Position numbers and translations under genes: made by a program. DNA of 64,000 bases. It comes from Schmidtea polychroa (lineage: Eukaryota). The DNA is taken from the NCBI GenBank assembly GCA_044892525.1, contig CM097886.1, positions 139,376,001 to 139,440,000 on the forward strand, written 5' to 3'. Positions 7,667 through 42,623 of the stretch are shown here, piece after piece (the stretch's first letter is position 1; each line of letters starts with the position of its first letter). The notes under the pieces were generated by a model, which was not told the DNA's origin, did no database searches, and saw only the letters and a program-made list of their open reading frames with translations.

Positions 7667-7836
7667 TAACTTAAAAAAATAAAAAAATTATGTAAATTGG
7701 TCAATGATATATAATAAAAGTATATATATTAGTATTTATATAACTGCGTATAAGGTTAAACCTCAAATGCGCAACAAGCATAAATATTTATTGTTTGTTT
7801 TTAGAATAATAATAAGAAGTCAAAGTCAAATCAGTC

Positions 7837-8536: not shown

Positions 8537-8552
8537 TAACTTCCCCCTTTAA
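8537..8552 (-). promoter_or_regulatory. Polypurine tract
   Basis: Minus strand AAAGGGGGAAG-TTA immediately before the 3' LTR. Confidence 0.85.
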
Positions 8553-8711
8553 AACCGGAGGTTTACATGAATCAATAAAAAGTAACGTAAAAAAAATTAC
8601 ATTCAATAACCTTTTTTTTTTCGTATGTTTTATATGTTTTTGTGTATTTTGTTTCTGTTTCTTTGTATCTACAACTTCAATAAAATTAAAAATTTACATT
8701 TTGTTTTGTAT

Positions 8712-11700: not shown

Positions 11701-11891
11701 TTTATTGTGAGTGTTATTGTATATTGGCCAAATGTTTTAATTTTGGAGCCATTGGCAGCGGTTAGTGACTTTTCTGTAGTTTTTGCATTTGTGTATAAGT
11801 AGTGTGGTAATAGGGAGATCTGTATTGTTTGAATGCACCGTGAAAGTATTATTATTGTCACCAAATGTGGGTGCTATCAATGGTGACATTT
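8712..11891 (-). pseudogene. pol: pol (PR-RT-RNase H-IN) of nested element with five lesions
   Basis: Motifs: LTAANG...IIGADFL (PR); WRACGDYRLLN, RMPFGLRNA, YLDD (RT); TTDCSG, TDHKPL (RH); HPG...CHSC, HTDVIGP, TDQGRQF, IERFHR, EGPF (IN). Lesions: frame break at the PR active site, TGA at 11343, frameshifts near 11030 and 10845, TAA at 9468. Confidence 0.93.
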
Positions 11892-13067: not shown

Positions 13068-13250
13068 TAATTGGTTTGTTGATGTTTTTTTTTATTGCTT
13101 GTTGTGTTACAAAAAATGAGATTGTTCAAGGATATGGCTTACTGTGTTCAGCCAAGAGTCACTATCCTTTATACTTCAATAATAAGTATGCTGAAAGGCG
13201 TAGTGATTGAAAAAAATCGTCGAATGCGAGTGTCGTGTTGTGTATATTTT

Positions 13251-13264
13251 TTCTTCTTACACCA
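13251..13264 (-). promoter_or_regulatory. Primer-binding site
   Basis: TGGTGTAAGAAG 2 nt after the 5' LTR, complementary to a tRNA 3' end ...CUUCUUACACCA. tRNA-Leu-like by inference. Confidence 0.75.
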
Positions 13265-13266
13265 GT

Positions 13267-13966
13267 TGTGATGGAGGTTGTAGTTTTATCGTTATTATTG
13301 TTAATTATTGTTAATTTATGTTATTTTGGTGAAGATTTTGTAGAGCCCGAAAGAGTCACCGTTAAAACTTGTAGCGGGACAATCGGGGTGCGTGCTATGT
13401 TCAAAATATAATAATTACGAACAATATAAAGTTACGAATATAACGCAAAACAATAATAAAATGTTACAACTTTTAAACTTTATTATAACAAAGAAATAAA
13501 ACCTCGTGTTTATCTTGGATTTTCGTAAATTGTAGTTCCAAATATTTTCTTTGATTTTCTCTGCACTATAACCTATTTAGGAAATTTATATATCGAGAAA
13601 TATGCTTCAAGTACAAATATAGTTCGATTAAAAACAACTGATTGATGAAACAGTATCTGCGTTTTCCGAAAACTTTTTTCTCCTTTCTTCACAATACTCA
13701 CAATCTGTTTTGCAGTAAAATTCAAATAAGATTTGTTAACTCTCAATATTTAATTTTCTATTTCCAACTCGACATTGATTTTTTATTTGATTTTTTTAAT
13801 TTTTATTTTTGTAATTTACTATAGCGATAATTTACTATAGTAAATTATCGCTATATAGTTTTTTATTAAAAATCTGGATTTCCCAGATGGTTGTATTTTA
13901 TATTTTAGTATACACAATTCCTAATTGTGAATACTAAAATATTAACAAAAATAACTGTACATTACA
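13267..13966 (-). repeat. 5' LTR of nested Gypsy element
   Basis: Direct repeat of 7837-8536, followed by TSD CAGTC. Confidence 0.97.
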
Positions 13967-14054
13967 CAGTCAATCAAATCAACCCAATCAAAACAATCTG
14001 CAGAAAAATCAAAGTAATCATTCCTACCAAATCGATCTTCAAATAACCAAACCA

Positions 14055-15983
14055 ATGCACCCACACACGTCAGTTCATATGTATTCGCAAAGAACCAAAG
14101 CCCAGCGCAATCTTGAAACTCACAAAATAAAGAAATACGTGCCGATGATCCATAAACACTACAATAGTTTTTATAAAAATTTACAAAACAAAATCAGCAC
14201 AGACAGCACTCCCATTACTATCAGAAGCTTCCCCAGCCAAGTCTGCATTCCAAATGACATGAAAATTGAAATCGAAGATAGGGAACTTCACCTTATCAAA
14301 TTTAATGAAGCCCGAAGAGTAAAACTCAAAGACCTCATTGGAGCATTCGATCAGTTCCCAAATGCAGAAGAAGCAGTAATAGAAGGGAAGAAAGTACCTC
14401 ACAGAATATTATTTCACATTACGAAGACAGAAATATCAATCTGTCAAGACAGAACACCTTTGATTACCACAAGCAATTGTACAATAATGTTCAGGACAAT
14501 TAAAAACGATCCAAGTGTGCCGAATGAATATAATCAACTAATAGTGCAAATGAACAACCTACCATGCGTAATCGGAATCGAAATACTGTACATACCTACC
14601 ATCCCGAACCCTTTCAGAGAATTAGAAATCGTCAAATCTACAACTCAAATTCCAAGAGATGCGATTAAGAGAAGAATATCATTTACCCACCAAGACCTAT
14701 CAACAACAGAAAGACATCAGCGTCTCATGTTCGTGGAGGCAAGGCTGATAATGGATATCAACAATAATCTAAGACCCGTAATAATATGTATAAGAAATTC
14801 AAAGGGCTCCGTAGTATACGACAAGAAAATCACACCTCGGACAAAAGTATTGCACTATTACCCTGAAAAAACAGAATCTAATAAAGAAAACATCATTGGT
14901 AATGAGGATGAATATCAAGCACTCATCGAGATTCAAAAATTATTAGTAGGATATGAAATCATAGATAAATTAAAAGCCCTAACCTTGGATCTGGACAATG
15001 TGATGGGGGTAAGAGAAATGGCAAATCATGCATTCTTGACATCATTTGTAAAGAACGTAGCTCCCCACAAAATCAAGCTGTCAAATCTGGCCTACCAGGT
15101 TATCAAACACCACAAAAGGTGGTACAAAGACAAGGCAATAAACGAAATATTGAAAAGACCTGAACCCTTCTCGGCAAGACACACAACAGCGATTCTGAAA
15201 GTCATCTATGACATAGTCGAAACACAGTGGGAAGAAGTAGTAAAATGGAATGTAGCATCAGAATATCCACTGTCAGGGAATACAGCAGCAGAAAATCCAC
15301 AATCAACAGAGACAAGAGAAGATGATCTGTTTATGGAAGAGGAGGACATGTATATCGAACCCTCACAATTTGAACTAAAATGTCGCAGAGATGGAACTCG
15401 AAGAACTTTCGAAAACGAGTTAGAAGATAGCGACGGTGACCTAATATTCATCTCAGAAGAAAGAAGACAGGAACCTGTGCAAACAGTTAAACTCGAACCA
15501 CGGGAACCACAAAGTCAATCAATGATAACAGAATGCGATTTAGATTCAGACGAGGAGTACTTCTCACTAGAAGAACAAAACAGTGAAGAAAAAGAAGATA
15601 CAATGAGTGTCGATGAATCAAAAGAAGAACTGGGGCCTGAACAAGATATAAACATAGAAGAGCCTCATTTTATAATAGAAAAAGAAAAGCAACAGATCAC
15701 AGAAAAGGAATTGACTCGTCATTTCGGGAGACAAATAAACGAGGGCGATATCCTAAATATAGCATTGGGCAAAGGATTCAATCGAACAAAAATGCTCATT
15801 CAGGATTGCGAGATAGAAATAGTAAAAAGTATTAGAGATAATGTGGACATTATCTTAACGGTCCAGGGAGGAATGTTGGATGATGAAGGTAGGCACATCA
15901 CCACATTTAACCTCACAGGTATCATAGGACAGGGCCCAAGAGATACAGAATCAATGTGTACGCTGAAGAGCGTAGATAGATAA
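14055..15983 (+). CDS. 642-aa accessory ORF of the large Gypsy element, with a degenerate REX4/ISG20-like DEDDh exonuclease domain
   Basis: 14718-15233 reads IICIRNSKGSVVYDKKITPRTKVLHY...LVGYEIIDKLKALTLD...LSNLAYQVI...IYDIVETQWE, paralleling REX4 VSIVN..G..VYDKYVKP..V.DY / LVGH...NDLKVL.LD / LY..V..EWE. An acidic region follows, and the end runs into the LTR. Confidence 0.7.
   Translation: MHPHTSVHMYSQRTKAQRNLETHKIKKYVPMIHKHYNSFYKNLQNKISTDSTPITIRSFPSQVCIPNDMKIEIEDRELHLIKFNEARRVKLKDLIGAFDQFPNAEEAVIEGKKVPHRILFHITKTEISICQDRTPLITTSNCTIMFRTIKNDPSVPNEYNQLIVQMNNLPCVIGIEILYIPTIPNPFRELEIVKSTTQIPRDAIKRRISFTHQDLSTTERHQRLMFVEARLIMDINNNLRPVIICIRNSKGSVVYDKKITPRTKVLHYYPEKTESNKENIIGNEDEYQALIEIQKLLVGYEIIDKLKALTLDLDNVMGVREMANHAFLTSFVKNVAPHKIKLSNLAYQVIKHHKRWYKDKAINEILKRPEPFSARHTTAILKVIYDIVETQWEEVVKWNVASEYPLSGNTAAENPQSTETREDDLFMEEEDMYIEPSQFELKCRRDGTRRTFENELEDSDGDLIFISEERRQEPVQTVKLEPREPQSQSMITECDLDSDEEYFSLEEQNSEEKEDTMSVDESKEELGPEQDINIEEPHFIIEKEKQQITEKELTRHFGRQINEGDILNIALGKGFNRTKMLIQDCEIEIVKSIRDNVDIILTVQGGMLDDEGRHITTFNLTGIIGQGPRDTESMCTLKSVDR
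15865..15873 (+). promoter_or_regulatory. Putative PPT of the large element
   Basis: AGGGAGGAA directly before TGTTGG at 15874, the point where all five family-A copies start to match. Confidence 0.65.
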
Positions 15984-26611: not shown

Positions 26612-27755
26612 AGTAGTAGGATGTGAGCTCCCCAGACCATGTCCCCTCCAGATCACATATACCCCCTCCCCCCCCCCCCGGGAAAAAATTTTATTTTTTT
26701 TTTAGAACGATGCCTAATATTTTTAGAACTATTACGTAATCAATGCCTAATATTTTTAGAACGATGCCTAATATTTTTAGAACTATTACGTAATTTTTTT
26801 TAAATTAAGTGATCCAGCGGGGACCTACTTTTTTTCTTCCCAAAAGTAATGTTCCCGCCAACAAATTTTATTAACCGATACCTCATCTTCAAGCTCAGTC
26901 CAAGACCTTTCGAATGAGCTATAGGTATCTTATATATCTTTAATAGTTTTAATGTTATTAACAATTGATGACCACCATCTTTTCAACGTTAAATTATTAT
27001 TATTTTTCAAAATATTATTAAGTGATCCAGCGGGGACCTACTTTTTTTCATCCCAAAAATTATTGTTCCCGCCAACATATTATATTGATCGATAGCTTAT
27101 TTTAAAGCTCTGTGCAAGAACTTTCTAATGAGATATAGATTTTTTATCATACGATGACTCATCACATTTTTAGAACAAAGACAATGACTCATCACATTTT
27201 TAGAATGATGTCTAATATTTTAGAATGATGCCAAATATTTTTAGAACGATGTCTATTATTTTTAGAATGATGTCTAATATTTTAGAATGATGCCTAATAT
27301 TTTTAGAACGATTACGTCATACTTTTAGAACGATGCCTAATATTTTTAGAACGATGCCTAATATTTTTAGAACTATTACGTAATCGATGTCTAATATTTT
27401 TAGAACGATGCCAAATATTTTTAGAACGATGCCAAATATTTTTAGAACGATGCCAAATATTTTTAGAGCGATTACGTAATACTTTTAGAACGATGCCTAA
27501 TATTTTTAGAACGATGCCTAATATTTTTAGAACGATGCCTAATATTTTTAGAACGATGCCAATTATTTTTAGAATGATTACATCATACTTTTAGAACGAT
27601 GTCTAATATTTTTAGAATTAATAATTTTGTTTTAATTATCGATGATTATATAATTTGTTTAAATCATTGATTATATAATTCTTTTGTTTTAATTATAGAA
27701 TACGTAATAATATAATTTTGTTTAAATCGTTGATTACATATTATTATTTTCTAAG

Positions 27756-27803
<48 letters not shown>

Positions 27804-27966
27804 CATATATATACAGAGTCTATCCGACAAAATATTCTGTCCCCCTAAGGGTACTGCACACAAATGTACTACTCACACTCAACAAGTCACAAGGGTACTG
27901 TTCACAAAATTACTTGTAAAAATATTCAAGACAAAACTTTCTAAATTCTAAATATTATTCTTTAAA
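26612..27966 (+). repeat. Maverick left TIR (~1355 bp)
   Basis: Reverse complement of 41381-42623. Contains a C-run, a ~210-bp internal duplication, ~21-bp TTTTAGAACGATGCCTAATAT tandem units and (ATT)n. Confidence 0.95.
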
Positions 27967-27972
27967 TATTCA

Positions 27973-28331
27973 CTAAAATTTATTAACACATTCACATTCA
28001 TCATCTCCACAGTTCATAACATTTTCAACAACATGATCTATACAATCCCTATATACACACGGTTCAGTATCCGTAAATTCCTCCATAGGTTCATCAATTT
28101 CTTGAATGCTTTCCTCATCATCTTGAGTGTTTTCTTCATCTGTTTCATCAAATTCCGAATCTTCACTCTCTGCTACCCAGCCGATATTTAATGCGTTTGT
28201 AACAGATAATATGTCCTCAATTTTCACACCAGATATTTCTGCTAACTTTTCCAATAAAAAGTTTATTATAAATTCTAAATATTAAATAATTCGATAATTA
28301 ACTAATCATATTAACCTTTTTCTGTAGTCAT
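27973..28331 (-). CDS. Small acidic Maverick protein, two exons (28331-28316, 28274-27973)
   Basis: ATGACTACAGAAAAAG|gt..41 bp..ag|AATTT gives MTTEKEFIINFLLEKLAEISG..., supplying an ATG that the ORF otherwise lacks. C-terminal DCIDH...CGDDECEC. Confidence 0.65.
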
Positions 28332-28427
28332 TATTAGTATTTTAAAACTATAGTATATATTTGTTTATAGAAAATATAGAATATAAGCGAAAACAAATAA
28401 GACTAAATACATTTATTAAATACAACA

Positions 28428-28847
28428 TTAAAATAACTGTGAAAGTCTAGCAGACATAATTTTCCAAATTGGAGAATACACATCATTATTATCAACTTTA
28501 TATCCTTGGATTGTAATTGTTATATACCAATTTTCGTTTTCTTTGAAACTGATTTCATCAAAGGAATCATAAAATTTTGCATATCGGTTGTTGAAAAATG
28601 CATTTTGATTGCATGATAGATTCGTATTCAACCTTTTGAAAACATCATCTATGGTTTTAATATCTAACATTGAAAGCGTGCCGGTTAAGAATTGAAATTG
28701 GGTAGGAATTAGCTTGATCGGTGACACCAATTTCATATTGATTTCTTCTTTTAAAAAATACATTTTGTAGTTGTGGAACATTTGAACAGGTTGTACAAGT
28801 TCTGGAACTACTTTTGGTTTTTCAGTGCTTGAAATTTTCTTGGTCAT
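28428..28847 (-). CDS. 139-aa Maverick accessory protein of unknown function
   Basis: Clean ATG-TAA ORF between two co-oriented genes. Confidence 0.7.
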   Translation of the reverse strand: MTKKISSTEKPKVVPELVQPVQMFHNYKMYFLKEEINMKLVSPIKLIPTQFQFLTGTLSMLDIKTIDDVFKRLNTNLSCNQNAFFNNRYAKFYDSFDEISFKENENWYITITIQGYKVDNNDVYSPIWKIMSARLSQLF

Positions 28848-28955
28848 TGTGAATTATGATTAAAATGAAATGGTACAGGGTTTTTATACCTATGACTATT
28901 GTTTATCATCCAATCAGATTGCAGTATGTTTTTGTTTTAATTGAATGATAAATAA

Positions 28956-29420
28956 TTAATTAAGTGATAATAAAAAATCTAAAAATTCTTTTCCTTCAAT
29001 TATTGATTTAATTTCAGATATGATATTATCAACTATACATTTGTAATCAATATTTTTTATTCCAAGAATTACTATCTTACCACTAGCGAATATATTTACA
29101 CACATAGGGTTATATTTTATATATCTCAAAGCTGGAAATAATTCTGGTTCATAAAAGCATGGTATTAATTTAGCTAATTTATTTAAATTACAAGAAAAAC
29201 CTATATCGGAAGTTACGGTTATCGATTGTATTTCTAAATCATAAACATTATATTCACTAGCTTTGATTATTTCCTTACACCCCATAATTCTACATTTACC
29301 AGTTTTGAAATATATTATTGGATATTTATTACTTCTATTGATAAGTTGTTGTGGTTTCCCTATTGGAAATACCATTTTTGATACATCAGTTTTTGCCCTG
29401 TAATTTATATTTGAAAGCAT
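28956..29420 (-). CDS. TATA-binding-protein-like protein, 154 aa
   Basis: IQSITVTSDIGFSCNLNKL...YEPELFPAL...NIFASGKIVILGIK matches TBP repeat 2 (IQN....DV.FPIRLE.L...YEPELFPGL...LIFVSGKVVLTGAK). IIYFKTGKCRIMGCK matches the end of repeat 1. Confidence 0.85.
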   Translation of the reverse strand: MLSNINYRAKTDVSKMVFPIGKPQQLINRSNKYPIIYFKTGKCRIMGCKEIIKASEYNVYDLEIQSITVTSDIGFSCNLNKLAKLIPCFYEPELFPALRYIKYNPMCVNIFASGKIVILGIKNIDYKCIVDNIISEIKSIIEGKEFLDFLLSLN

Positions 29421-29524
29421 TTTAATGAAATAATTTTAAAAACTTTGATATATATAGGTATTTAAAAACAGAGTTCATTTAAATTATCAATATAAACAAT
29501 AATTATATAGTTTAAATTTAAAAA

Positions 29525-30163
29525 ATGGAATTACGAAATGATGCAGTATACCAAATCGTTGGTCCAAGTGGTAGCGGGAAAACTTTATTTGTTTGTAAAT
29601 TACTAAAATCAAATTTGTTTAAAACAAAATTCAACAATATTTATTGGCATAGGGGCGCCGACGAAGAACACGGATTGACGCAATCAAGTTTCTGTCAGTT
29701 GAAAAACATGAAAATAGTAAAGGGCTTTGATAAAAACTGGTCAAGTCGTTTGAAGAAAGATGATGTCATCATTATCGATGATTTGTATCAAGAAGCCAAT
29801 AAAGAAAAGGACTTTAATAATTTATTCACAAAAATCAGCAGACATGTTGGTGTAACAGTTATTTTCATAACACAAAATCTATTTCATCAAGGTGGTGCAC
29901 ATCGAACACGTAATTTAAATGTACAATATTTAGTTATTTTCAAGAATCCTAGAGATGCAACTGTCATTGATTTTCTTGGACGACAAGCATACCCTAATAA
30001 CCGTAATTTTCTTATCAATGCATTTCAAGATGCTACGAAAATACCGCATGGGTATATATTTCTCGATTTCACACAACAATGCCCTGATGATATACGGGTA
30101 AAAACAGATATTTTCAACCCAAAAGGTGCCATGGTATATAAACAAAGTTCAAAACAAAGTTGA
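29525..30163 (+). CDS. Genome-packaging ATPase (A32/FtsK-like)
   Basis: Walker A GPSGSGKT, Walker B VIIIDD, FTKISRH, ITQNLF, RTRNLN, PHGYIFLD. Confidence 0.93.
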   Translation: MELRNDAVYQIVGPSGSGKTLFVCKLLKSNLFKTKFNNIYWHRGADEEHGLTQSSFCQLKNMKIVKGFDKNWSSRLKKDDVIIIDDLYQEANKEKDFNNLFTKISRHVGVTVIFITQNLFHQGGAHRTRNLNVQYLVIFKNPRDATVIDFLGRQAYPNNRNFLINAFQDATKIPHGYIFLDFTQQCPDDIRVKTDIFNPKGAMVYKQSSKQS

Positions 30164-30176
30164 AAACATATAAATC

Positions 30177-30671
30177 ATGTTTTCAAAAACAAGGATATCG
30201 GGTAAAAAACAACCAAAAGTTCCACCAACAACTAGTTATACTCCATCTAAAGAACTTATTACAGAAAATTTTCCTGCAATGAATCTTATTTCGAAAAATC
30301 CTAAACCTAAACCAAAAAGTAAAACCACTAAGAAAGTAAAAGTTGTTAAAAATCATCGGAGTTTCCCGTTTTTCAATACATTGTTAAAGGCACCAAGTAT
30401 GAAAAGAAACAGTATTTTGCAATCTTTTCCAAATTATGTTGTCGATGATTTACTCGATATTATACTTAAAGTAGTCAAAGGCAAGATTAAAATCAGTAAA
30501 TCTAAAAAGCAATTATTGAGTAAACATAGGAAACCTTTGCTATCATTAGTAAATAATAAAAATCGTCAACAAATGAGAAAAATTATATATAAACAACAAG
30601 GGGGATTTATCGGTGCATTGATACCTTTAGCAATATCATTATTAGGTGGAATAATAGGAAGTCGATCATAA
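30177..30671 (+). CDS. Basic virion/core protein with C-terminal QQGG-FIGALIP amphipathic tail
   Basis: Lys-rich; ends KQQGGFIGALIPLAISLLGGIIG, resembling the adenovirus pX GG-hydrophobic tail seen in Polinton accessory structural ORFs. Confidence 0.7.
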   Translation: MFSKTRISGKKQPKVPPTTSYTPSKELITENFPAMNLISKNPKPKPKSKTTKKVKVVKNHRSFPFFNTLLKAPSMKRNSILQSFPNYVVDDLLDIILKVVKGKIKISKSKKQLLSKHRKPLLSLVNNKNRQQMRKIIYKQQGGFIGALIPLAISLLGGIIGSRS

Positions 30672-30732
30672 ACAATGGGTGCTAATCCTTCATTACCAGA
30701 CATTAAATTTAATATTAAATCTTCTTGTTGTA

Positions 30733-31788
30733 ATGGAGAAGATTTGGACGAACCCAGAAGACGAAGCCGGTTTCGGTGGAGTGGCAAAATTAAGGAAAAG
30801 AGTTCCGAATTCGAAAAAGGAAACTCAGAAGTGGTTATCAGACCAGCTTGCGTACAGTTTGAACAAACCAATGCAGAAACGATTCCCAACAAGAGCATAT
30901 AAAACATATGGAATAAATGATTTATGGCAAATGGATTTGATGGAGATGATACCCTATTCTAAAATTAACAATGGGTATAAATATATTTTAACCTGTATTG
31001 ATGTATTCAGTCGGTTTGCCCGAGCAATACCCGTCAATGCAAAATCTGCAGATGAAATGTCCAAAGCTGTTAATCATTTATTTAAAGATGGACATCCTAA
31101 AAACTTGCAAACTGATTTAGGTATTAATATTATTATTTTTATTATTATTATTATTATTTTAGGTAAAGAATTCTACAACAGTAAAGTCAAGCAAATCCTC
31201 AATAAATTGAAAATAAACCATTACTCAGTACATTCTCAATACAAAGCTGCTCATGTTGAAAGATTTAACCGAACTTTGAGAGATAGATTAAAGAAATTAT
31301 TCGTGCATCAAGGTAATAAAAAATGGGTATTGGTTTTACCAAAAATAATAACCAGTTATAATCACTCATCACATCAAGGACTGAATGGATTAAGGCCGAT
31401 TGATATCACGTCAAAAACAATCTATTCTAAAAAACCTGAAAAAATTACAAAACTGAAATATAAAGTAGGTGACCATGTTAGAATTAGTAAAATTAGTGCA
31501 TCACCATTTATTAAAAATTTCGATACAAATTGGAGTGATGAAGTCTTTGTAATTTCAAAAATAAATACTAAACAGAATCCTGTAATGTATGTCATCAAAG
31601 ATAATGATAACAATATTGTACAAGGAAAATTTTATGAGCAGGAATTACAAGTTATTCCTCCCCCAAAAGTATTTAGAATTCAGAAGATTTTGAAAACTAA
31701 AAATAAAGGCAAGGATAAACAATACTATGTCAAATGGCATGGTTATCAAAACCCATCATGGATATCAGAAAAGGATCTAGTAAAGTGA
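30733..31788 (+). CDS. Retroviral-like integrase with C-terminal chromodomain and a predicted 42-bp intron (31121-31162)
   Basis: GFGGVAKL, WQMDL, LTCIDVFSR, LQTDLG|KEF, VERFNRTL, YYVKWHGY...SWI. Likely start is ATG 30733. Confidence 0.95.
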   Translation: MEKIWTNPEDEAGFGGVAKLRKRVPNSKKETQKWLSDQLAYSLNKPMQKRFPTRAYKTYGINDLWQMDLMEMIPYSKINNGYKYILTCIDVFSRFARAIPVNAKSADEMSKAVNHLFKDGHPKNLQTDLGINIIIFIIIIIILGKEFYNSKVKQILNKLKINHYSVHSQYKAAHVERFNRTLRDRLKKLFVHQGNKKWVLVLPKIITSYNHSSHQGLNGLRPIDITSKTIYSKKPEKITKLKYKVGDHVRISKISASPFIKNFDTNWSDEVFVISKINTKQNPVMYVIKDNDNNIVQGKFYEQELQVIPPPKVFRIQKILKTKNKGKDKQYYVKWHGYQNPSWISEKDLVK

Positions 31789-32801
31789 ATTTTTATACTA
31801 TTTTACCAAGCAATAGTTGCCCGCTTATTCATCCAGATAATCAAGCCAGTAAATTCATGGTCAATCTCCAGAATCCGATTTCTTTAAATGGTGACTGGGA
31901 AGTTGCACTGCAAGATTTTACATTCGTGTACAATACATTCCCATTTTATAGTCAATGTAAGATTGATTTCAAAAGGAATGCTATGAAAACATGTAGTGGT
32001 ATCTTTATTATCAGTAATTATGATAAAACATATCATATTCCGAATCAAATATTAGATCAGCATTGCACTATGTTTTACAAGGATGGATTAAATATCAGTT
32101 GTGATTTTAAACCATTTACAATAACATTCGAATATATTGAAGATGCCAGACGAATGGGTTGCAATAAGTTGAAAAATGAAGTTATGGAAACAGAATATTT
32201 ATTACGCTTTGATCTATTTGAAGCAAACAGTGTAATGAGAGAAGAAATCAAAATTTCAGTGTCGTATAATAATGAAGTTGAAGAATCATTCACCTTCGCT
32301 GACGAATTATATATTGATAAACTTGATGTGTTACTTAAATATTTAAAGTATAATTGTTCACACATATTTAAAAGTTTGGATATTGTGAAAGATTTGTTAT
32401 TTACCTTCAGTTTGAATGATGACATTTGCGAAGTTACATTTGATAAAAATTTGACAAATACACTTGGATTAGAGAAGCAGCAATATCGGGAAAAATCGGC
32501 TGGTATACGTAAACCAAGAATACTTGAACATCATCAACAAATGTTCATATATACTAATATTATTGAGCCTATAATAGTTGGTGATTCCAGTGTTCCTCTA
32601 TTGAAATCGGTGTGGATTGGAAAATATGAACATGATGAAGTTGTCAATATAAATATAGATAATCCCATGTATTTACCAATTTCAAGCTCATGTATAAACA
32701 ATATAGAAATAAATATTCGTGACGATAGTGGAAAACTTATAAACTTCCCAAAAGACTCAAAAACTCATTTGACACTACATTTTCGTAAAGTAGATGGCTA
32801 A
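31734..32801 (+). CDS. Minor capsid protein (penton)
   Basis: FYTILPSNS...FMVNLQNPISLNGDWEVAL and FIYTNIIEP.IVGD..VPLL...YLPI...IEINIRDDSGK...LTLHFRK. Exact start uncertain. Confidence 0.88.
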   Translation: MAWLSKPIMDIRKGSSKVNFYTILPSNSCPLIHPDNQASKFMVNLQNPISLNGDWEVALQDFTFVYNTFPFYSQCKIDFKRNAMKTCSGIFIISNYDKTYHIPNQILDQHCTMFYKDGLNISCDFKPFTITFEYIEDARRMGCNKLKNEVMETEYLLRFDLFEANSVMREEIKISVSYNNEVEESFTFADELYIDKLDVLLKYLKYNCSHIFKSLDIVKDLLFTFSLNDDICEVTFDKNLTNTLGLEKQQYREKSAGIRKPRILEHHQQMFIYTNIIEPIIVGDSSVPLLKSVWIGKYEHDEVVNINIDNPMYLPISSSCINNIEINIRDDSGKLINFPKDSKTHLTLHFRKVDG

Positions 32802-33156
32802 TTCCGATATTATTAGTATGTATAGTGATAGCCAATCTGGTGGTGAATTACCATATTTTATTGGTAAACAGTATGGATCAGGTTGGTTAAAAACAATAGG
32901 GAGATTTGCACTTCCCATTCTTAAACGTATTGGTAGTTTTGGCATGAAAACTGCAAAAGATGTGATTATGAATGAACAGAAAATATTACCATCCCTAAAA
33001 ACAAATGCTTTAGCTGAGTTAGGGAAGGTTCTACCTGGAGTTGCTGGTATGTTTCAAAAAGATACACCTCCAGTCCCAGCGCCAAAACGTAAAGGGCATG
33101 GAATATCGCGTATAAACAAACGAATGAAAGGACATGGAACTATATTTGCAAAATGA
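32794..33156 (+). CDS. Small Gly-rich amphipathic structural protein (PZ-type)
   Basis: QSGGELPYFIGKQYGSGWLKTIGRFALPILKRIG; overlaps both neighbours. Confidence 0.75.
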   Translation: MANSDIISMYSDSQSGGELPYFIGKQYGSGWLKTIGRFALPILKRIGSFGMKTAKDVIMNEQKILPSLKTNALAELGKVLPGVAGMFQKDTPPVPAPKRKGHGISRINKRMKGHGTIFAK

Positions 33157-34376
33157 TTTGTGGTAAATCCGAATTATGTATATTTGATAGACCGTCGCCC
33201 CAGGCAGTAATAGAATTTGGTGCCTTTGAGGAAGTTTTTCCTATGAATTCAATTACTGATAGTAGAAATGATATCGAGTTTTATATTAATGGTTCGGAAA
33301 CTGAATATTTAGATTTGAACGATACTTTATTGACTGTTCAGATCAAGGTTGTAGATAAAGATAGAAAGGTTTTGGATGCCAATGCGGATGTATTACCAAA
33401 CAATTTCATGTTTCATACTCTGTTTAAAGATGCAGTGTTGGGATTTAATAATATCAAGATTGAGGGTGGAAATAATACATTCATTCACAAGGCTTTGATA
33501 GAAACTATTTTAAATTACAATTCAGATACTAAAAATACCTGTCTTACACCTATGGGTTATGCAGCAGCAGATGATGAAAGAAAAAAGTGGGTTAAAGGTT
33601 CAAAAGTATTCACTATGTGCTCATCATTACAACTTGATTTTATGGATCAACCGAAATATTTACTACCGGGAGTTAATATACATATTAGACTGAAAAGATC
33701 TGATTCTGCATTGTCTCTTACTAGTGCAACTGGTGCACCAATATGTCAATTAGTTGATGCAAAATTATTGGTGAGAAGAGTTCGAGTAGACCCGTCAGTA
33801 TTAGCTGGTCATCAATTGGGGCTTAATTCAAAACATGCAATTTATCCTTTAAAAACAAAGGAAATTGTACAATTTGCTATTGCTAAAGGTGCTTCATCAT
33901 TCTATAAAGAACAAATATTTGGTGACAGAAGAATGCCTAATTTTATTCTGGTAACATTTCAAAGTGAAACGCAATATAATGGATCGTATACTGCTTCCAG
34001 CTCAATTTTCAAAAACTTTGGTGTTACTTCATTGACTTTGTCGAAAAATACTGATTATGGAGAAACATATATTCAAGATTTCGAGAATGATAATTACTGT
34101 GCGACATATATGCAGAGTATTGTTAGAAATCTGGGTTATTTAGATAAAAACTTGAATTGCGGAATAACTCTTGAAGAATTTAAAAGCAAATACCCATTTT
34201 TCACATTTGTTCTAGCTACCGATTTTGATTTAAATCAGAGTCAATTACCACAAAACGGGAATTTACGACTGGATATAAAGTTTGCAAAGGCCATTACTGA
34301 ACCAGTACATGTTATAATATATGGAGTATTTGAAAATGAAGTTCAAATTACTGCAAATAGAACCGTGCTAGTATAA
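33153..34376 (+). CDS. Major capsid protein (double jelly roll, hexon-like), 407 aa
   Basis: CGKSELCIF, IEFYINGSETEYLDLNDTLL, LQLDFMDQPKYLLPGV.I.I.L.R, QNGNLRLDIKFAK. Confidence 0.92.
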   Translation: MICGKSELCIFDRPSPQAVIEFGAFEEVFPMNSITDSRNDIEFYINGSETEYLDLNDTLLTVQIKVVDKDRKVLDANADVLPNNFMFHTLFKDAVLGFNNIKIEGGNNTFIHKALIETILNYNSDTKNTCLTPMGYAAADDERKKWVKGSKVFTMCSSLQLDFMDQPKYLLPGVNIHIRLKRSDSALSLTSATGAPICQLVDAKLLVRRVRVDPSVLAGHQLGLNSKHAIYPLKTKEIVQFAIAKGASSFYKEQIFGDRRMPNFILVTFQSETQYNGSYTASSSIFKNFGVTSLTLSKNTDYGETYIQDFENDNYCATYMQSIVRNLGYLDKNLNCGITLEEFKSKYPFFTFVLATDFDLNQSQLPQNGNLRLDIKFAKAITEPVHVIIYGVFENEVQITANRTVLV

Positions 34377-34788
34377 ATGTATACAGAAACACCAAAAAGT
34401 TGTCATGGAGTAAGTTTTTCAATACTGTTTAATTTATTAAAGTAGTTCTGTTCAGGTCAATAGAATTGGAAAACAGATATTGGGAAATGAATTTGTAGGA
34501 GTTTTTCCTCTCGATAAAATCCCATATTTGAGCAATAATCAAGCCATAATCGTCAATACTCAATCGTCTCATCTTGGTGGAGAACATTGGATTGCTATAT
34601 ATGTGAAACCTAGTAATATATTCGTGTTCGATCCTATGGGTTTCTATTACCCTGCTTTGTTGGTATCAAAACTACAAACAATGGGGAAACCTATTGTATA
34701 TAATAAAACAATGTTTCAAAATCCCTTGACACAAACATGCGGTCAACATTGTTTAGCTTGGTTGTTGTATAAAAAATTTGATGATTAA
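34377..34788 (+). CDS. Adenain-like cysteine protease, two exons (34377-34409, 34456-34788)
   Basis: FVGVFP.D, GEHW, FDP.G, Q...CGQHC catalytic set. A GTAAGT...TTCAG 46-bp intron links an in-frame ATG placed directly after the MCP stop. Confidence 0.9.
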
Positions 34789-35404
34789 TAAANNNNNNNN
34801 NNNNNNNNNNNNNNNNNNNNNNNNNNNNNNNNNNNNNNNNNNNNNNNNNNNNNNNNNNNNNNNNNNNNNNNNNNNNNNNNNNNNNNNNNNNNNNNNNNNN
34901 NNNNNNNNNNNNNNNNNNNNNNNNNNNNNNNNNNNNNNNNNNNNNNNNNNNNNNNNNNNNNNNNNNNNNNNNNNNNNNNNNNNNNNNNNNNNNNNNNNNN
35001 NNNNNNNNNNNNNNNNNNNNNNNNNNNNNNNNNNNNNNNNNNNNNNNNNNNNNNNNNNNNNNNNNNNNNNNNNNNNNNNNNNNNNNNNNNNNNNNNNNNN
35101 NNNNNNNNNNNNNNNNNNNNNNNNNNNNNNNNNNNNNNNNNNNNNNNNNNNNNNNNNNNNNNNNNNNNNNNNNNNNNNNNNNNNNNNNNNNNNNATATTA
35201 TTATCTAACTATACAAACATTGTGCATGCACAAAGATATGCAATCCCATTTGCTACCATTTGATTGGCTGATAGAGGAAAAAGTATTCAGGAATGTGTCT
35301 TAATTCTGATTGGTTGAGACATGGAAATATTCCTGTTCTATATAAACATTGACAATTCTAAAATTCGTCATAATTATTCTTAAATTTACAAATTTTAAAT
35401 TAGA

Positions 35405-35970
35405 ATGGACGCTGATTTACACAAAATTTTGAATGCCATGTTGATGGGTGAAAATGGTAAATTATTTAGTTATTATTATTATTATTTTTATTTATTATTT
35501 TAGAGAATTTATGGTACCAAGTGACTGAAGATGATTCAATTTTGAATGTTGATAGGATTTTCGGTAAATTTAAATATTTTAATTTTTATGAAATTATTAT
35601 TTTATTTAGAACCTATTATAATTAGCGACGATGATGATGTCGTGTTTATTGGGCAAAATGATGCCCCGGATAATGATGCCTTATTTGTTAGGCAAAACAA
35701 TGTTTTTAATGAACAAAGTAAATTTATTTTATTTTAGTATATTATTTTTTAAAAATCATTTTAGTGTTTAATGTTGACATGGACGCTTAAATCGATGTTC
35801 CAATTAATAATGATTCTATTGAGGAGATGAATAATGCACTGACTTCTATCGATGAGTTGAATTATGTGGATAATACAATCGAGGAGCTTGTTAATGTGGA
35901 TAATGCCCTCACTTCTATTGAGGAGGTTGTTGATAATGAATCAGATTCCGACATGGAATCACGATGTTAG
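35405..35970 (+). pseudogene. Four-exon acidic protein gene inside the Maverick, with an in-frame TAA in exon 4
   Basis: Exons 35405-35456, 35504-35563, 35610-35717, 35765-35970; introns 47/46/47 bp GT-AG, all phase 1. TAA at 35788; the frame then stays open for 59 further codons to TAG 35970. Confidence 0.65.
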
Positions 35971-36333
35971 TATTTATTTATTTTTATATATTTATTTTTT
36001 TTTTTTTTAAAAACCTTGTAAATTTCTTAAATACTTTTTAAACATTTTCTTTAAAAACTTATTTATAAAAACTTATTATGAAAATGAAGAAAATATTATG
36101 ATGAAATTGAAAATGTTATGTTGACTAAATGATGAAAATATTATGATGAAGAAAATGATGAAAATATTATGATGAAGAAAATGATGAAAATATTATGATG
36201 AAGAAAATGTTTAAAAAGTATTTAAGAAACAATAGTTTTAAAATATTCCTTGTAGTTTGCAATGAGCAACTACATTAGTTAAAATAATAATAATAATAAT
36301 AATAATATTAAAAATAGTAATAAAAATATATCT

Positions 36334-36780
36334 TGTAGTCTGCAGTGAGCATGCAGCTACATATCTCTTTTATCATGATTGCCCCAATAAATGTAGTCTG
36401 CAGTCAGCATGCAGCTACATATCTCTTTTATCATGATTGCCCCAATAAATGTAGTCTGCAGTCAGCATGCAGCTACATATCTCTTTTATCATGATTGCCC
36501 CAATAAATGTAGTCTGCAGTCAGCATGCAGCTACATATCTCTTTTATCATGATTGCCCCAATAAATGTAGTCTGTAGTCAGCATGCAGCTACATCAAACT
36601 AATTATTTATTACGTAATACATACCCTTTATTAAATGTGTCTAAATGCAGCTGCGTCAAACTAAATATTTATTACGTAATACATACCCTTTATTAAATGT
36701 GTCTAAATGCAGCTGCAACAAACTATTTATTACGTAATAATTAACCCTTATTAAATATAGTCTGCATGCAGCTGCATCAA
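36334..36780. repeat. Tandem arrays upstream of pPolB: 5 x 58-bp hairpin units, then 3 x ~62-bp units
   Basis: TGTAGTCTG units at 36334, 36392, 36450, 36508, 36566; second array carries TATTACGTAATA. Confidence 0.92.
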
Positions 36781-36964
36781 TAATGATAATAATGATAATA
36801 ATAATAATAATAATAATAAAATCACACATTTATAGTTTACAAGACTTTATTAATATAAATACAATTTCATGATTAATATTAATTGATAAATATAATTAAC
36901 AGGCAAATTATATCCACATTACTGCCAGGCTTCAACTGGTCACTCAAATTTATGTCACAAAGTG

Positions 36965-39900
36965 ATGAAAAAATATTATGGTCGTAAATTTTATGGCATC
37001 AAGTACTATATATGCCCAATATGCGAGACTTCCCATAGCATTAAATATTTAGAGTTTTACAGTATACATAAATCCCATTTAAATCAGTTCTCTTTAAATA
37101 AAAAGGATTTATTTAACAAATTGCGAAATACCGCAAAACCTATAATTAAAACTAATGTAAATAATACAAAACCTGTAAATAATAATACAAAACCTGTAAA
37201 TAATAATACAAAACCTGTAAATAATATTACAAAACCTGTAAATAATATTACAAAACCTGTAAATAATAATACAAAACCTGTAAATAATAATACAAAACCT
37301 GTAAATAATAATACAAAACCTGTAAATAATATTACAAAACCTGTAAATAATATTACAAAACCTGTAAATAATAATACAAAACATGTAAATAATATTACAA
37401 AACCTGTAAATAATAATAATACAAAACCTGTAAATAATATTACAAAACCTGTAAATAATAATATAAAACATGTAAATAATATTACAAAACCTCTAATTAA
37501 TAATGTTATTAATGTAAATAATAATTTAAAAAGACCTGCTGTTAGTATTGGGTCTGATGCTCCCTCTAAAATTAATAAATTAGAACAAATAACTGTGGTT
37601 AATAATATTCAAGTAGGCGGTTCAGTCGATATTGACGATGAACCTGAAATCGAAATTGATTTTAAGGGGGTTCGAAAGAATCTAAGATTTAATGTAGAAA
37701 AGGATAACATCATTCAAATATCCATAACCGATAAAATCGTTAATAAGTTAAAACATGAAATAATCAGAATGGGGTCGGTGAAAATACAATTCTCTGTATT
37801 GATTCAATTTGAAAAAGATGGTGAAATTAAAGATAATTTCTTCTCGAATAGGGCAGAGGCTTTTTCAGATAGTTTTCTAAGTGAGGGGGTTCACAAATTA
37901 AATAATAAAATAGAAAAATTCACATATTTGGGTAGTGGATGGCGGGTTGTTAAAATCAAAGAAATAGATTTTATATTAACAAAATTTACACATATGAATA
38001 GGCTAGCTGGACATAGTTACATCCCCACCCCATCATCTTTAAAATCTAAAAATGCAATAGTAAATGTTAAAAACACCGATGATATGTGCTTTATATATAG
38101 TATTTTAGCACTTTTAAAACGCAATGTCGTACATAGTCATAGGAACCGTGTTAGTTCCTATGAAAATTATCTTGACGAGTTAAATTTTGACCCCATTTCC
38201 GACTGTCCAATGAAACTATGTGATATTCCTAAATTCGAGATGAAAAATAAGGATTTAAATTTATCAATAAATGTTTTAACTTATAGAACAACCCCTGCTA
38301 AGCCTTTTGAAAATATAGTTGACGATAATTATATTCCACATCATCCCAAATTGGATATAATTCACCGATCTACGGTTATAGGTGGTGAACCCATATATTT
38401 ACTTTTATTGGAAGACGGTGATAATTTCCATTATACTGCAGTTTTTAACTTACAAAGACTAATGAATTGTCGCTCTAGTAGTGAATGTGACGTTAGACTT
38501 CAAGTAAACTGGTGCCCCCATTGTCTCAATGGTTTTCGACTTAAAAATGCATTTGATATTCACGTTGCCTTATGCATTAAAAACCAGATAGGTACTACTT
38601 TATACACGCTACCCAATGATAAAAATTTAATTTTTCAAAATTATGCGAAAACCATAACCCCGCCATTCGTGATATATGCAGACTTTGAATCAATTTTACC
38701 GGGGGATATAATACACCATCAAAAGCATTTGCCAATAACAGCAGGTTTATTATTAATAAATAATTATAATAACTCTAAATTTTATTATGAGTTTGTTGGG
38801 GATGATTGTATCTTATCTTTCTTGCGTAAGGTGGAGGAAATTGCTATGACAATTGTCCTGCCATATTACGAAATTAATGGGAAAAAGCCCATGCAGACCT
38901 TGTCTTTCGCTGAAGAGCGGGCCTTTCGTGATTCCAGAACCTGCTACCTTTGTAAAAAATTCATTAAGAATAGAGTTAGGGATCATTGTCACTTTTCAGG
39001 TAAGTATCTTGGTGCTGCCTGTATGAAATGTAATGTTTCTCGACGAATTCAGAAACAGTTACCTGTGGTTTTTCACAATTTGAGGGGGTATGATCTTCAT
39101 CATATTTTGAAGTATGGTTTGAATAATTTTCCTTCTTGGGAATTAAATATTATTCCGACCACTACTGAGAAATTCATCTCTCTTATCGCGTACATTAACA
39201 AATTGTCTGTTCGTTTTATTGACAGCATGCAGTTTGTTAATTCATCTTTAGCAAAAGCGGTTAAGACTCTTTCCGATCTGCCTTTAACTTCTTCTGTTTT
39301 CGATGGCGCAATTGTTCGAGCCAAAGGTATCTTTCCTTATGACTTTGCAACTTCGCTTGAGGTTCTGGAATCGACTCTTGAATTGCCTCCTATTTGGGAT
39401 TCTGTGTCTAATGATGAATATGCATTAGCCCAAGTAATTTGGACTCAGCAAAACTGCAATAACATGTTAGATTACATGTTAACTTACCTTAAATTAGACG
39501 TGTTTCTCCTCGCAGACTATTTCCAACAATTCCGTGCAAAGGCCATTGCTTACAATGGTCTTGAGCCTCTTAATTTCTATGGCATTCCCGGTATGTCATG
39601 GGCCTCTGCGCTTATGACATTAACGGAACCCATTGAACTTTTGCAGGACATGGAAATGTTTAATTTCTATGAAGGAGGGATACGTGGTGGGTTAACATTT
39701 GTTAACAAACATTATGTTGCAAGTTCTGAAGACACAGAACTCTTGTATATTGATATTAATAACTTGTATGGTTGGGCCTTAAGCCAAAATCTGCCTTATG
39801 CTGACTTTGTTTGGGTGTATGATGATCTTGATTCTGTCTTGAATGAATGTATAAATGCTGATATCGATAACCTTCCATATGGTTATACTATGGAGGTAGA

Positions 39901-41143
39901 TATGGATATACCTGTTTGTTTGCATGACTTTCTGAATGATTTTCCTCTTGCTCCGGAAAAGATGTGCCCGCCAAATTCTAAAGTTGAGAAGCTGATGCTC
40001 ACGCATTGGCCGAAGAAGAACCATGTTCTTCATTGGCGACTTCTCAAGTTGTATATAGAATTGGGGGCTATTATTAAAAATGTACATAGAGCAATCAAAT
40101 TTAAGCATGCACCCATTTTCAAATCTTACATAGACAAAAACACTAATTTGAGAGCCAATTCTACATGCGAATTATATAGGGATCTATACAAATTATTTAA
40201 TAATAGTCTGTATGGGAAATCCGTAGAAAACCTTAAAAAACGGATGAATTTGAGGCTATGCAATTCAGCTGAAAAGATGATTGTATATGCTTCAAAGCCG
40301 ACTTTCAAGAAATCTATCAAAATTGATGATGACTTGATTGCTGCACATCTATATAAGGATTCTATATGTTTAGACAGGCCTAGTTACATTGGCCAAACGG
40401 TGCTAGACCTGTCTAAACTGAGGATGTACCAGTTACAGTATAAAGAATTGGCTAAATATAGAAATGAATTTAAATGTGAGATAAATATCGTTGCCGGCGA
40501 TACTGACTCCTTTTTTCTTGAGGTTAAGAACTGTAAGCTTGACACTCTTTTGCCGGCAATGATTCGTGACAATCTTTTAGACACTTCCAACTATGACCCT
40601 GCACATCCCTTATACTCTAGAAACCTTGATTCGGTGATAGGTAAATTTAAAGATGAAAGTAAAGGTCTAGGGTATAAGGAATGGGTTTTCTTAAGACCCA
40701 AGTGCTATAGTTTGTTAGGGGCTAAAGATCATTTAAAAGCAAAAGGAGTCAGGTTAATAGGTACAGAAATTAGGCACGATTCATATTTAGAATGCTACAA
40801 TAACAACGTAGTATTTTCTGTGCCACAAAGTAGGATAGGGACGCGGAACCATCAATTGTACACATTTAAAAACAATAAAATCGCGTTGACAAACAACGAC
40901 GACAAGCGGTTTTGGGTGGGGAAAAATTCCAGTCTCGCATTTGGTCATTATTTAGCACTAGATGATATAAATGATGATCAAATATTTGAAGAAGTTGGGC
41001 CACTATTCGGAGGATTAAGTCCAGATTTTGTTTCTGGTGATGAGGAAGTGGGTCCACTTTTCAATGGTTTAAGTCCAGATTTCGATTCTGGTGATGATCC
41101 TAATGATAAAAGAGATATAGATGATATTTTATTGTCAGACTAA
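36965..41143 (+). CDS. polB: Protein-primed family B DNA polymerase (~1392 aa)
   Basis: YADFES, DHCH.SG, FHNL.GYD, FIDSMQF, KGIFPY, Y..LDV, YIDINNLYG, KLFNNSLYGK, GDTDS, RPKCYS. N-terminal Zn-finger-like motif and ~16 PVNN(N/I)TK repeats. Confidence 0.97.
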   Translation: MKKYYGRKFYGIKYYICPICETSHSIKYLEFYSIHKSHLNQFSLNKKDLFNKLRNTAKPIIKTNVNNTKPVNNNTKPVNNNTKPVNNITKPVNNITKPVNNNTKPVNNNTKPVNNNTKPVNNITKPVNNITKPVNNNTKHVNNITKPVNNNNTKPVNNITKPVNNNIKHVNNITKPLINNVINVNNNLKRPAVSIGSDAPSKINKLEQITVVNNIQVGGSVDIDDEPEIEIDFKGVRKNLRFNVEKDNIIQISITDKIVNKLKHEIIRMGSVKIQFSVLIQFEKDGEIKDNFFSNRAEAFSDSFLSEGVHKLNNKIEKFTYLGSGWRVVKIKEIDFILTKFTHMNRLAGHSYIPTPSSLKSKNAIVNVKNTDDMCFIYSILALLKRNVVHSHRNRVSSYENYLDELNFDPISDCPMKLCDIPKFEMKNKDLNLSINVLTYRTTPAKPFENIVDDNYIPHHPKLDIIHRSTVIGGEPIYLLLLEDGDNFHYTAVFNLQRLMNCRSSSECDVRLQVNWCPHCLNGFRLKNAFDIHVALCIKNQIGTTLYTLPNDKNLIFQNYAKTITPPFVIYADFESILPGDIIHHQKHLPITAGLLLINNYNNSKFYYEFVGDDCILSFLRKVEEIAMTIVLPYYEINGKKPMQTLSFAEERAFRDSRTCYLCKKFIKNRVRDHCHFSGKYLGAACMKCNVSRRIQKQLPVVFHNLRGYDLHHILKYGLNNFPSWELNIIPTTTEKFISLIAYINKLSVRFIDSMQFVNSSLAKAVKTLSDLPLTSSVFDGAIVRAKGIFPYDFATSLEVLESTLELPPIWDSVSNDEYALAQVIWTQQNCNNMLDYMLTYLKLDVFLLADYFQQFRAKAIAYNGLEPLNFYGIPGMSWASALMTLTEPIELLQDMEMFNFYEGGIRGGLTFVNKHYVASSEDTELLYIDINNLYGWALSQNLPYADFVWVYDDLDSVLNECINADIDNLPYGYTMEVDMDIPVCLHDFLNDFPLAPEKMCPPNSKVEKLMLTHWPKKNHVLHWRLLKLYIELGAIIKNVHRAIKFKHAPIFKSYIDKNTNLRANSTCELYRDLYKLFNNSLYGKSVENLKKRMNLRLCNSAEKMIVYASKPTFKKSIKIDDDLIAAHLYKDSICLDRPSYIGQTVLDLSKLRMYQLQYKELAKYRNEFKCEINIVAGDTDSFFLEVKNCKLDTLLPAMIRDNLLDTSNYDPAHPLYSRNLDSVIGKFKDESKGLGYKEWVFLRPKCYSLLGAKDHLKAKGVRLIGTEIRHDSYLECYNNNVVFSVPQSRIGTRNHQLYTFKNNKIALTNNDDKRFWVGKNSSLAFGHYLALDDINDDQIFEEVGPLFGGLSPDFVSGDEEVGPLFNGLSPDFDSGDDPNDKRDIDDILLSD

Positions 41144-41380
41144 ACTGTGATAAATGTTAATATATCTTTAATAAAACGTTTCTTCTACATTGTTGTATTA
41201 TCTAAAATTTTTATTGAAAACTTGTTATAGTTTTCACATTTCTTACAAATGTTAAACACTTGTATAAATATATTTATTAATATTGATAAAGTTTTTATAA
41301 ATCATGTTTAACTATTGAAAGAAATTTTTATTTGAAATGTATGTATGAGCTCACCACTACATATATGAGTTGAGTGTACA

Positions 41381-41528
41381 TTTAAAGTATAATATTTAGA
41401 ATTTAGAAAGTTTTACCTTGAATATTTTTACCAGTACCAATTGTGAACAATAACCATGTGACTTGTTGAGTGTGAGTAGTACCCTTGCTAGCAATACCCA
41501 TAGGGAGACAGAATATCTTGTCGGATAG

Positions 41529-41591
<63 letters not shown>

Positions 41592-42623
41592 CTTAGAAAA
41601 TAATAATATGTAATCAACGATTTAAACAAAATTATATTATTACGTATTCTATAATTAAAACAGAAGAATTATATAATCAATGATTTAAACAAATTATATA
41701 ATCATCGATAATTAAAACAAAATTATTAATTCTAAAAATATTAGGCATCGTTCTAAAAGTATGATGTAATCATTCTAAAAATATTAGGCATCGTTCTAAA
41801 AGTATGACGTAATCGCTCTAAAAATATTAGGCATCGTTCTAAAAATATTTGGCATCGTTCTAAAAATATTAGACATCGATTACGTAATAGTTCTAAAAAT
41901 ATTAGGCATCATTCTAAAAATAATAGACATCGTTCTAAAATTATGACGTAATCATTCTAAAAATATTAGGCATCATTCTAAAATATTAGACATCATTCTA
42001 AAAATAATAGACATCGTTCTAAAAATATTTGGCATCATTCTAAAATATTAGACATCATTCTAAAAATGTGATGAGTCATTGTCTTTGTTCTAAAAATGTG
42101 ATGAGTCATCGTATGATAAAAATCTATAGCTCATTCGAAAGTTCTTGGACTGAGCTTTAAAATAAGCTATCGATCAATATAATATGTTGGTGGGAACAAT
42201 AATTTTTGGGATGAAAAAAAGTAGGTCCCCGCTGGATCACTTAATAATATTTTGAAAAATAATAATAATTTAACGTTGAAAAGATGGTGGTCATCAATTG
42301 TTAATAACATTAAAACTATTAAAGTTATATAAGATACCTATAGCTCATTCGAAAGGTCTTGGACTGAGCTTGAAGATGAGGTATCGGTTAATAAAATTTG
42401 TTGGCGGGAACATTACTTTTGGGAAGAAAAAAAGTAGGTCCCCGCTGGATCACTTAATTTAAAAAAAATTACGTAATAGTTCTAAAAATATTAGGCATCG
42501 TTCTAAAAATATTAGGCATCGTTCTAAAAAAAAAAATAAAATTTTTTCCCGGGGGGGGGGGGGGGGGAGGGGGTATATGTGATCTGGAGGGGACATGGTC
42601 TGGGGAGCTCACATCCTACTACT
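41381..42623 (-). repeat. Maverick right TIR (~1243 bp)
   Basis: Inverted copy of the left TIR with fewer 21-bp units and scattered substitutions. Confidence 0.95.

Follow-up and report, generated by a model that had tools for sequence, protein, structure and literature searches.

We analysed a stretch of 64,000 nucleotides (nt) of the Schmidtea polychroa genome (GenBank assembly GCA_044892525.1, contig CM097886.1, positions 139,376,001 to 139,440,000 of the forward strand), hereafter the window, which contains a Maverick/Polinton element at positions 26612 to 42623. The element is 16,012 bp long, has the ends AGTAGTAG, and is flanked by a 6-bp target-site duplication. Its left terminal inverted repeat (26612-27907, + strand) is approximately 1.3 kb long and internally repetitive, and the right one lies at 41441-42623 (- strand). 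The inverted repeats with the target duplication, together with the genes for an integrase, a polymerase, an A32-like ATPase, and an adenain-type protease, identify the element as a Maverick, as an earlier reading made from the letters alone (hereafter the sequence-only reading) had also concluded; its capsid proteins are candidates. At least 40 integrase copies in the same genome are 99-100% alike and 40 protease copies are identical, indicating that the family multiplied recently. The integrase, protease, and polymerase genes of this many-copy Maverick are very probably split by introns, in contrast to the usual intron-free description of these elements.

The sequence-only reading had proposed six uniform GT-AG mini-introns in four genes. 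All six ends and lengths were found in the sequence as it gave them, and five of the introns were retained: intron 1 (28275-28315, - strand, 41 nt) in gene A, intron 2 (31121-31162, + strand, 42 nt) in the integrase gene, and introns 4 (35457-35503, 47 nt), 5 (35564-35609, 46 nt), and 6 (35718-35764, 47 nt), all on the + strand, in a region that is most likely the leader of the polymerase. These five are in phase 1. The protease intron (intron 3, + strand) was in phase 0 as first drawn, giving the phases 1, 1, 0, 1, 1, 1; after re-drawing it spans 34410-34445 (36 nt) and is in phase 2. The set was also not complete, as a seventh intron of 937 nt (35966-36902, + strand, phase 1), lying between the leader and the main polymerase exon, had been missed. 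The ends, phases, and conserved positions of the introns, and the frames interrupted if they are left in place, are established from the sequence.

Five of the six introns as first drawn have a GC content of 0.05-0.15, and that of the protease has 0.19; the flanks range from 0.28 to 0.35, except those in gene A (0.17-0.20). No GT..YAG stretch of 36-50 nt with a GC content of 0.17 or less was present across 8,864 nt of eight other reading frames, a cut-off that was chosen after the values were known and that the protease intron (0.19) would fail. A looser scan of 13 kb on both strands gave 17 GT..AG candidates, and the 11 extra ones were rejected, since they overlap the introns described here or sit within undisturbed reading frames and do not pass the filter on composition. 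No intron was found in the ATPase, capsid-like, and TBP-like genes. Introners, which are intron-generating transposons, would be expected as numerous near-identical copies of a single intron at unrelated sites. Compared by eye, the seven introns and their variants in other families resemble each other only in their ends and AT-richness; no genome-wide search with the intron sequences was made.

The sequence-only reading had proposed a comparison with host intron lengths, and the short introns of the element match the short host class. Among 77 host introns inferred by homology from 20 dynein loci, 42 are 39-58 nt long (median approximately 49 nt), with GTAA, GTAT, or GTTA donors and TAG or CAG acceptors. 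The short introns of the element (36-47 nt) fall in the lower part of this class, and their uniformity thus reflects the minimal intron of the host rather than a special device. GT..AG ends, host-like length and composition (with the protease intron 3 nt below the shortest sampled host intron), and kept position and phase with diverging inner sequence are features of U2-type introns that the element introns display. The element introns are very probably spliceosomal introns of the host type, all support for which is comparative. In four of 14 listed sequencing runs, X1, X2, and X6 (guessed to be RNA) and X8 (type uncertain), none of the 15 listed joints, out of 234, fell at an intron site, over a compared stretch that ended before the acceptor of intron 7; the records break at repeats of three introns and at one more place. 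X1 and X2 contain the letters of the protease intron, and their source may be DNA or unspliced RNA.

The integrase gene (30733-31788, + strand, two exons) encodes a retroviral-type integrase, with a Pfam rve match at the cut-off, a Chromo match, and 2,229 homologues. Its intron sits two codons past the second catalytic Asp motif. All 120 listed outside homologues (the best of the 2,229) have this motif and lack the insert, as determined by script for 111 and by reading for nine. Within the same genome, a degenerate pattern detected 841 matches with a GT..AG insert at exactly this site and 107 contiguous matches, and reversed controls gave none. As to sister Mavericks, in which the presence of the introns had been proposed as another check, the intron of the protease and the last one of the polymerase are common to all families examined, and the integrase intron is not. 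The inserts are 30-54 nt long and mutually unrelated inside, while the families carrying them are 72-92% alike in exon DNA. They include (ATT)n repeats, a 42-nt type with a stop codon, and 40-, 41-, and 43-nt types. Among the first 30 insert-bearing loci, retention of the insert would introduce a stop or frameshift in 12 and leave the frame open in 18. Ends fixed at one codon position around free, frame-breaking inserts in multi-copy families are the behaviour of an intron. The motif TTAGGTA occurs at both ends of the intron (window 31115-31168) and resembles a short direct repeat; in other families the 5' side reads TTGG|GT. A pure microsatellite origin was considered and is not established, since the intron of the sister lineage L125 is a non-repetitive sequence of 40 nt.

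The gene for the adenain-type cysteine protease (34405-34788, + strand; Pfam Peptidase_C5) was re-drawn with the ATG at 34405, a first exon of 5 nt, an acceptor 10 nt earlier, and a product of 115 codons. In nine diverged complete copies the junction is constant, its two sides being ATG-RA immediately next to a GTAAG donor and an AG that precedes TTC-x-[GA]T-x-CAG, and the re-drawn model fits the junction common to 19 of 19 copies. The resulting frame contains a single stop, at the end of the gene. The phase-0 model with the acceptor at 34455, as first proposed, restores a frame only with an upstream in-frame ATG, which is present in five of the 19 copies, and it was rejected as a general model; acceptor 34455 is possible as a minor form in the window family. 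Genome-wide, the junction pattern ATG-RA|GT...AG gave 1,904 matches and its contiguous form four, none of which is a protease. Two intronless outside homologues begin with M-N-S-[VI]-Q. When 150 homologues were examined, the first conserved Gly lay at residue 18-23 in 82 of the 126 with the motif and at residue 26 in none; by hand count it is residue 20 in the re-drawn protein and residue 26 in the first drawing. The protease intron is older than the integrase intron, as it is found in families without the latter. Four homologues from other data sets that are 51-64% alike (P0122, P0123, P0159, and P0173) have odd low-complexity N-termini ending at the position of this acceptor, as if the gene caller had read through the same intron.

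The polymerase gene, predicted at 35405-41143 (+ strand) with a spliced leader, was recognized by phrog_1907 (DNA polymerase, E=5e-21) and gave neither a Pfam polymerase match nor a PDB match; from motifs and context, we take it to be protein-primed. In the window, its main frame opens at an acceptor in phase 1 (36902), and the same holds for all eight diverged copies that reach the site. Ahead of the acceptor there are 2-11 open codons and no in-frame Met upstream, and conserved residues with changing third positions precede the first Met, at codon 19-21. A motif for this acceptor gave 2,606 matches with AG. A pattern without the G, which is not quite identical to the first in its opening letters, gave 23, equal to the 26 of its reversed control.

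Introns 4-6 had been assigned to a fourth gene ending at 35970. The TAG taken as its end lies in a phase-1 donor at 35966, which is present in all 21 sister copies with a located exon end (30 examined). In the window copy an in-frame stop (35788-35790) follows after seven codons of leader exon 4, so the proposed frame does not run to 35970 there; in 12 of 15 sister copies exon 4 runs for 67 codons without a stop before the donor (of 30 sister loci, the start was not found in 13 and exon 4 was not located in two more). The phase-1 donor at 35966 and the phase-1 acceptor at 36902 are kept across copies, and introns 4-6 are most likely part of the polymerase gene. The supposed fourth gene would then be its 5' leader, which intron 7 connects to the main exon.

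Leaders of the same construction were traced in diverged copies. In L117 the leader comprises three exons, and its introns measure 51, 46, and 571 nt; in L123 introns of 42, 49, and 45 nt precede a final intron of 1,315 nt. All of these are in phase 1, and in both copies a GTAAG donor occupies the position of the window donor, with a split codon of the same kind. The leader of L130 contains four mini-introns. A chain finder that does not presuppose phase detected 33 mini-introns, 32 of them in phase 1, in 18 regions, and three on the opposite strand. The exons of one leader are symmetrical, so the run of phase-1 introns is largely one fact, and exon units can duplicate. In L123 (7260-7580) a tandem duplication of a 186-nt exon-plus-intron unit of the leader was observed, with the two units 83% alike over 130 nt and the second lacking the acceptor AG. 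An acceptor-like TTAG (35398-35404) lies one base 5' of the leader ATG, where a 5' untranslated-region intron or a trans-splice site is possible. Tandem repeats occur within the long polymerase intron (36340-36760), and a coding repeat of the NNTKPV type lies near the start of the main exon (37165-37500). For one variant of the acceptor motif of the polymerase, approximately 40 matches are found within 1 Mb (G000:C1 319890-1366602), many of them as close inverted pairs, and perhaps represent a non-autonomous derivative.

Gene A (27973-28331, - strand) has two exons and 105 codons. L123 and L124, the latter only 36% alike, retain its ATG, a first exon of 13-16 nt, and the phase-1 intron; in L130 the donor is lost. 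A sister pattern gave 604 matches. In all 12 loci compared, the unspliced frame is six codons long, and exon 2 comprises 93-110 codons. The product has neither Pfam nor Atlas matches and can be called, at most, an acidic accessory protein.

Constitutive splicing of nuclear transcripts by the major spliceosome of the host is, on comparative grounds, the highly probable explanation of these observations. In a recently multiplying Maverick lineage, transcribed in the nucleus, the genes for the integrase, protease, and polymerase and one accessory gene would have acquired U2-type introns of the length usual in the host, and these would most likely be removed constitutively, like any short host intron. 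The element is copied as DNA, and all progeny inherit a gained intron. Two introns, that of the protease and the last one of the polymerase, are common to all families examined and appear to be old; the short phase-1 introns of the leader would multiply through tandem duplication of exon-plus-intron units, and the integrase intron would have been gained or lost more than once. The long nuclear adaptation that had been suggested agrees with this picture: the protease and polymerase introns predate families with integrases approximately 72-75% alike in DNA, which fits a long residence under host splicing.

Several observations weigh against constitutive splicing or against the gene models on which it is built. 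The integrase insert in the window is 42 nt long, in frame, and stop-free, so that the unspliced gene has an open frame of 351 codons; splicing restores the catalytic motif, as had been claimed, and not a broken frame. Every insert of the window family has a length divisible by three and is free of stops (18 of the first 30 loci and 30 of 30 close copies), and the frame therefore does not force splicing there. The outside integrase homologues are called reading frames, a set that favours intronless genes. The re-drawn protease intron is 36 nt long (36-41 nt in most copies) versus 39 nt for the shortest sampled host intron, and the CAG farther downstream is also strongly conserved, so that a second acceptor may be used. 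In the polymerase, the Met lying 19-21 codons into the main exon in nearly all copies could act as a start, and leader exons were traced in the window, L117/L118, L123, and L130 types but not in L115, L121, L122, and L129.

Two ways of doing without constitutive splicing account for some of these points. If the inserts were AT-rich microsatellite insertions and intergenic spacers that are never spliced, the integrase insert would be translated and the protease and polymerase would use other Met starts; the open integrase frame, the low complexity of the inserts, and the conserved internal Met of the polymerase agree with this. It is nevertheless highly improbable, as GT and AG are fixed at one codon position across families whose unrelated inserts carry stops or frameshifts, the first Met of protease exon 2 does not come before frame residue 65, beyond the His-containing Pfam match, and the polymerase residues preceding the internal Met are conserved while third positions change. 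A regulated switch, in the tissue-specific form that the sequence-only reading had raised, would withhold splicing in some tissues, and the retained in-frame integrase intron would yield a protein of full length in which hydrophobic residues are inserted next to the active site, perhaps a repressor. In a P-element-type switch, tissue-dependent intron retention yields a repressor. The distribution of the introns among the integrase, protease, and polymerase genes, outside the ATPase, capsid-like, and TBP-like genes, would suit such a device, as would the insert of the window clade, which varies from 39 to 54 nt and stays in frame and stop-free, and the in-frame TAG in the last leader donor, through which retention would give a short acidic product. 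However, an (ATT)n microsatellite alone accounts for the in-frame length steps, the L125 insert is 40 nt long, stops or frameshifts occur in other families, families with an intronless integrase coexist, and neither in their ends nor in their sizes do the introns differ from ordinary introns of the host. The switch is unsupported, and we regard it as quite unlikely.

In a different arrangement of the last gene, the leader exons would be a short gene in their own right, and another exon or a trans-spliced leader would supply the polymerase acceptor. The 67-codon reading of exon 4, which stops at 35970 in most of the sister copies, would provide its end, and the leader sequence is poorly conserved between families and untraced in the four diverged copies. 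This arrangement is unlikely: the stop falls within a phase-1 donor that suits the acceptor in phase, L123 and L117 agree in donor position and split codon, and protein-level conservation of the main exon begins with its first codons, so that an upstream start is needed.

The history of the integrase intron was examined with two trees. In the protein tree (22 genome copies and 26 outside proteins, with 24 of 46 loci excluded for stops or frameshifts), the intron-bearing copies form two groups that are split by intronless copies on starred branches. In the DNA tree, which comprises 36 copies and the metagenome locus L145 and retains broken copies, four of them on long branches, grouping of the 16 intron-bearing rows as one clade was rejected (approximately unbiased test, p=0.0002); the backbone is less resolved. 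Intron-bearing integrases are thus non-monophyletic, through either parallel gain or repeated precise loss. Two gains at one site require two events, whereas a single gain requires at least two or three precise losses in addition, and inter-family recombination could blur either history. For repeated loss, a virus-like element made of DNA would have to undergo cDNA-mediated repair, which is almost as unusual. Parallel gain of the intron is a possibility that we put forward tentatively. The families may record the birth of introns in viral core genes, with the integrase intron gained independently at least twice at the same G|GT site, in an element that lacks an RNA stage, and the leader introns still multiplying by tandem duplication; this broader proposal, too, falls somewhat short of an even chance. 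Hundreds of copies with and without the integrase intron make gain versus loss directly testable. Parallel intron gains at homologous sites are reported to be common in Daphnia (PMC4202315).

The sequence-only reading had contrasted these introns with the mostly intronless Mavericks, and the literature examined agrees. No introns were reported in the genes of 134 intact vertebrate Mavericks (Barreat and Katzourakis 2021, PMC8097293, citing Kapitonov and Jurka 2006 in agreement), and the core genes of Caenorhabditis Mavericks are called intronless (Widen et al., bioRxiv 10.1101/2022.07.12.499685). The present element shares with the vertebrate Mavericks the inverted repeats, the 6-bp duplication, and the integrase, polymerase, ATPase, protease, and capsid genes, and differs in that three core genes are split. 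Introns are also known within Caenorhabditis Mavericks, where they lie in captured host cargo (bioRxiv 10.1101/2022.07.12.499685) rather than in core genes as here. The dinoflagellate eupolintoviral elements likewise carry spliceosomal introns in Polinton-related elements, some in coding regions; those are copies of mobile introners, mostly inserted after integration (PMC12166617), unlike the 36-47-nt AT-rich introns described here, which are fixed in position across families and share no mobile sequence apparent by eye. Virophage elements of Cafeteria are described without introns, and group I introns are known in cryptophyte elements.

Gypsy-type integrase/transposase genes split by GT-AG introns (one to four) are known from Ginger1 DNA transposons, which, unlike the present element, are small, move by cut-and-paste, and lack genes for a polymerase or capsid (PMC2836005). 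A similar pattern is known from Daphnia pulex, where differing short introns at homologous sites are present or absent among close lineages and have short direct repeats at their ends; those cases concern host genes in populations (PMC4202315), whereas here families of a virus-like element coexist and gain is not separated from loss. We found no report of lineage-fixed spliceosomal introns in animal Maverick core genes, although Kapitonov and Jurka 2006, Koonin et al. 2024, Repbase, and supplements lay outside the search and may hold some; the available parts of PMC10748475, PMC8502044, PMC12220804, PMC6431247, PMC11244446, PMC8547959, and bioRxiv 2022.07.28.501842 contain nothing on such introns.

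Where intact elements are defined by intronless frames (PMC8097293), lineages of this kind would be classed as defective or annotated with incorrect protein starts; the latter is suggested by the read-through N-termini of P0121-P0123. Spliced core genes would tie expression to the host nucleus and to its short-intron size class, and may bear on whether such elements live as transposons, nuclear viruses, or parasites of cytoplasmic giant viruses.

The remaining genes of the element are those in which no intron was found. The TBP-like gene (28956-29420, - strand; Pfam PF00352, E=3e-15) occurs in most diverged families and at L145. The A32-like packaging ATPase (29525-30163, + strand) has a Pfam Pox_A32 match. 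Of the double jelly-roll major and single jelly-roll minor capsid proteins that characterize Mavericks, the candidate for the major one (33153-34376, + strand) has Atlas look-alikes at 0.98, of whose members 15-24% carry PF21738 (DJR-like), and this recognition is under the threshold of the tool. The probable minor capsid gene (31785-32801, + strand) has no database match and was named from its position and an N-terminal motif. In all 30 close copies compared and in two diverged ones, its frame starts with a GTG (31785-31787) that shares bases with the stop codon of the integrase, and ATG replaces the GTG in some other families; either a non-AUG start or an upstream in-frame ATG within the integrase gene would serve.

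A scan of viral contigs gave no relative. A metagenome scan gave two loci; one of them, L145 (64% identity), has no intron at the integrase position and does not extend as far as the protease. Gypsy-type retroelement frames (integrase and reverse transcriptase/RNase H) are located at window positions 5217-15983, left of the Maverick.

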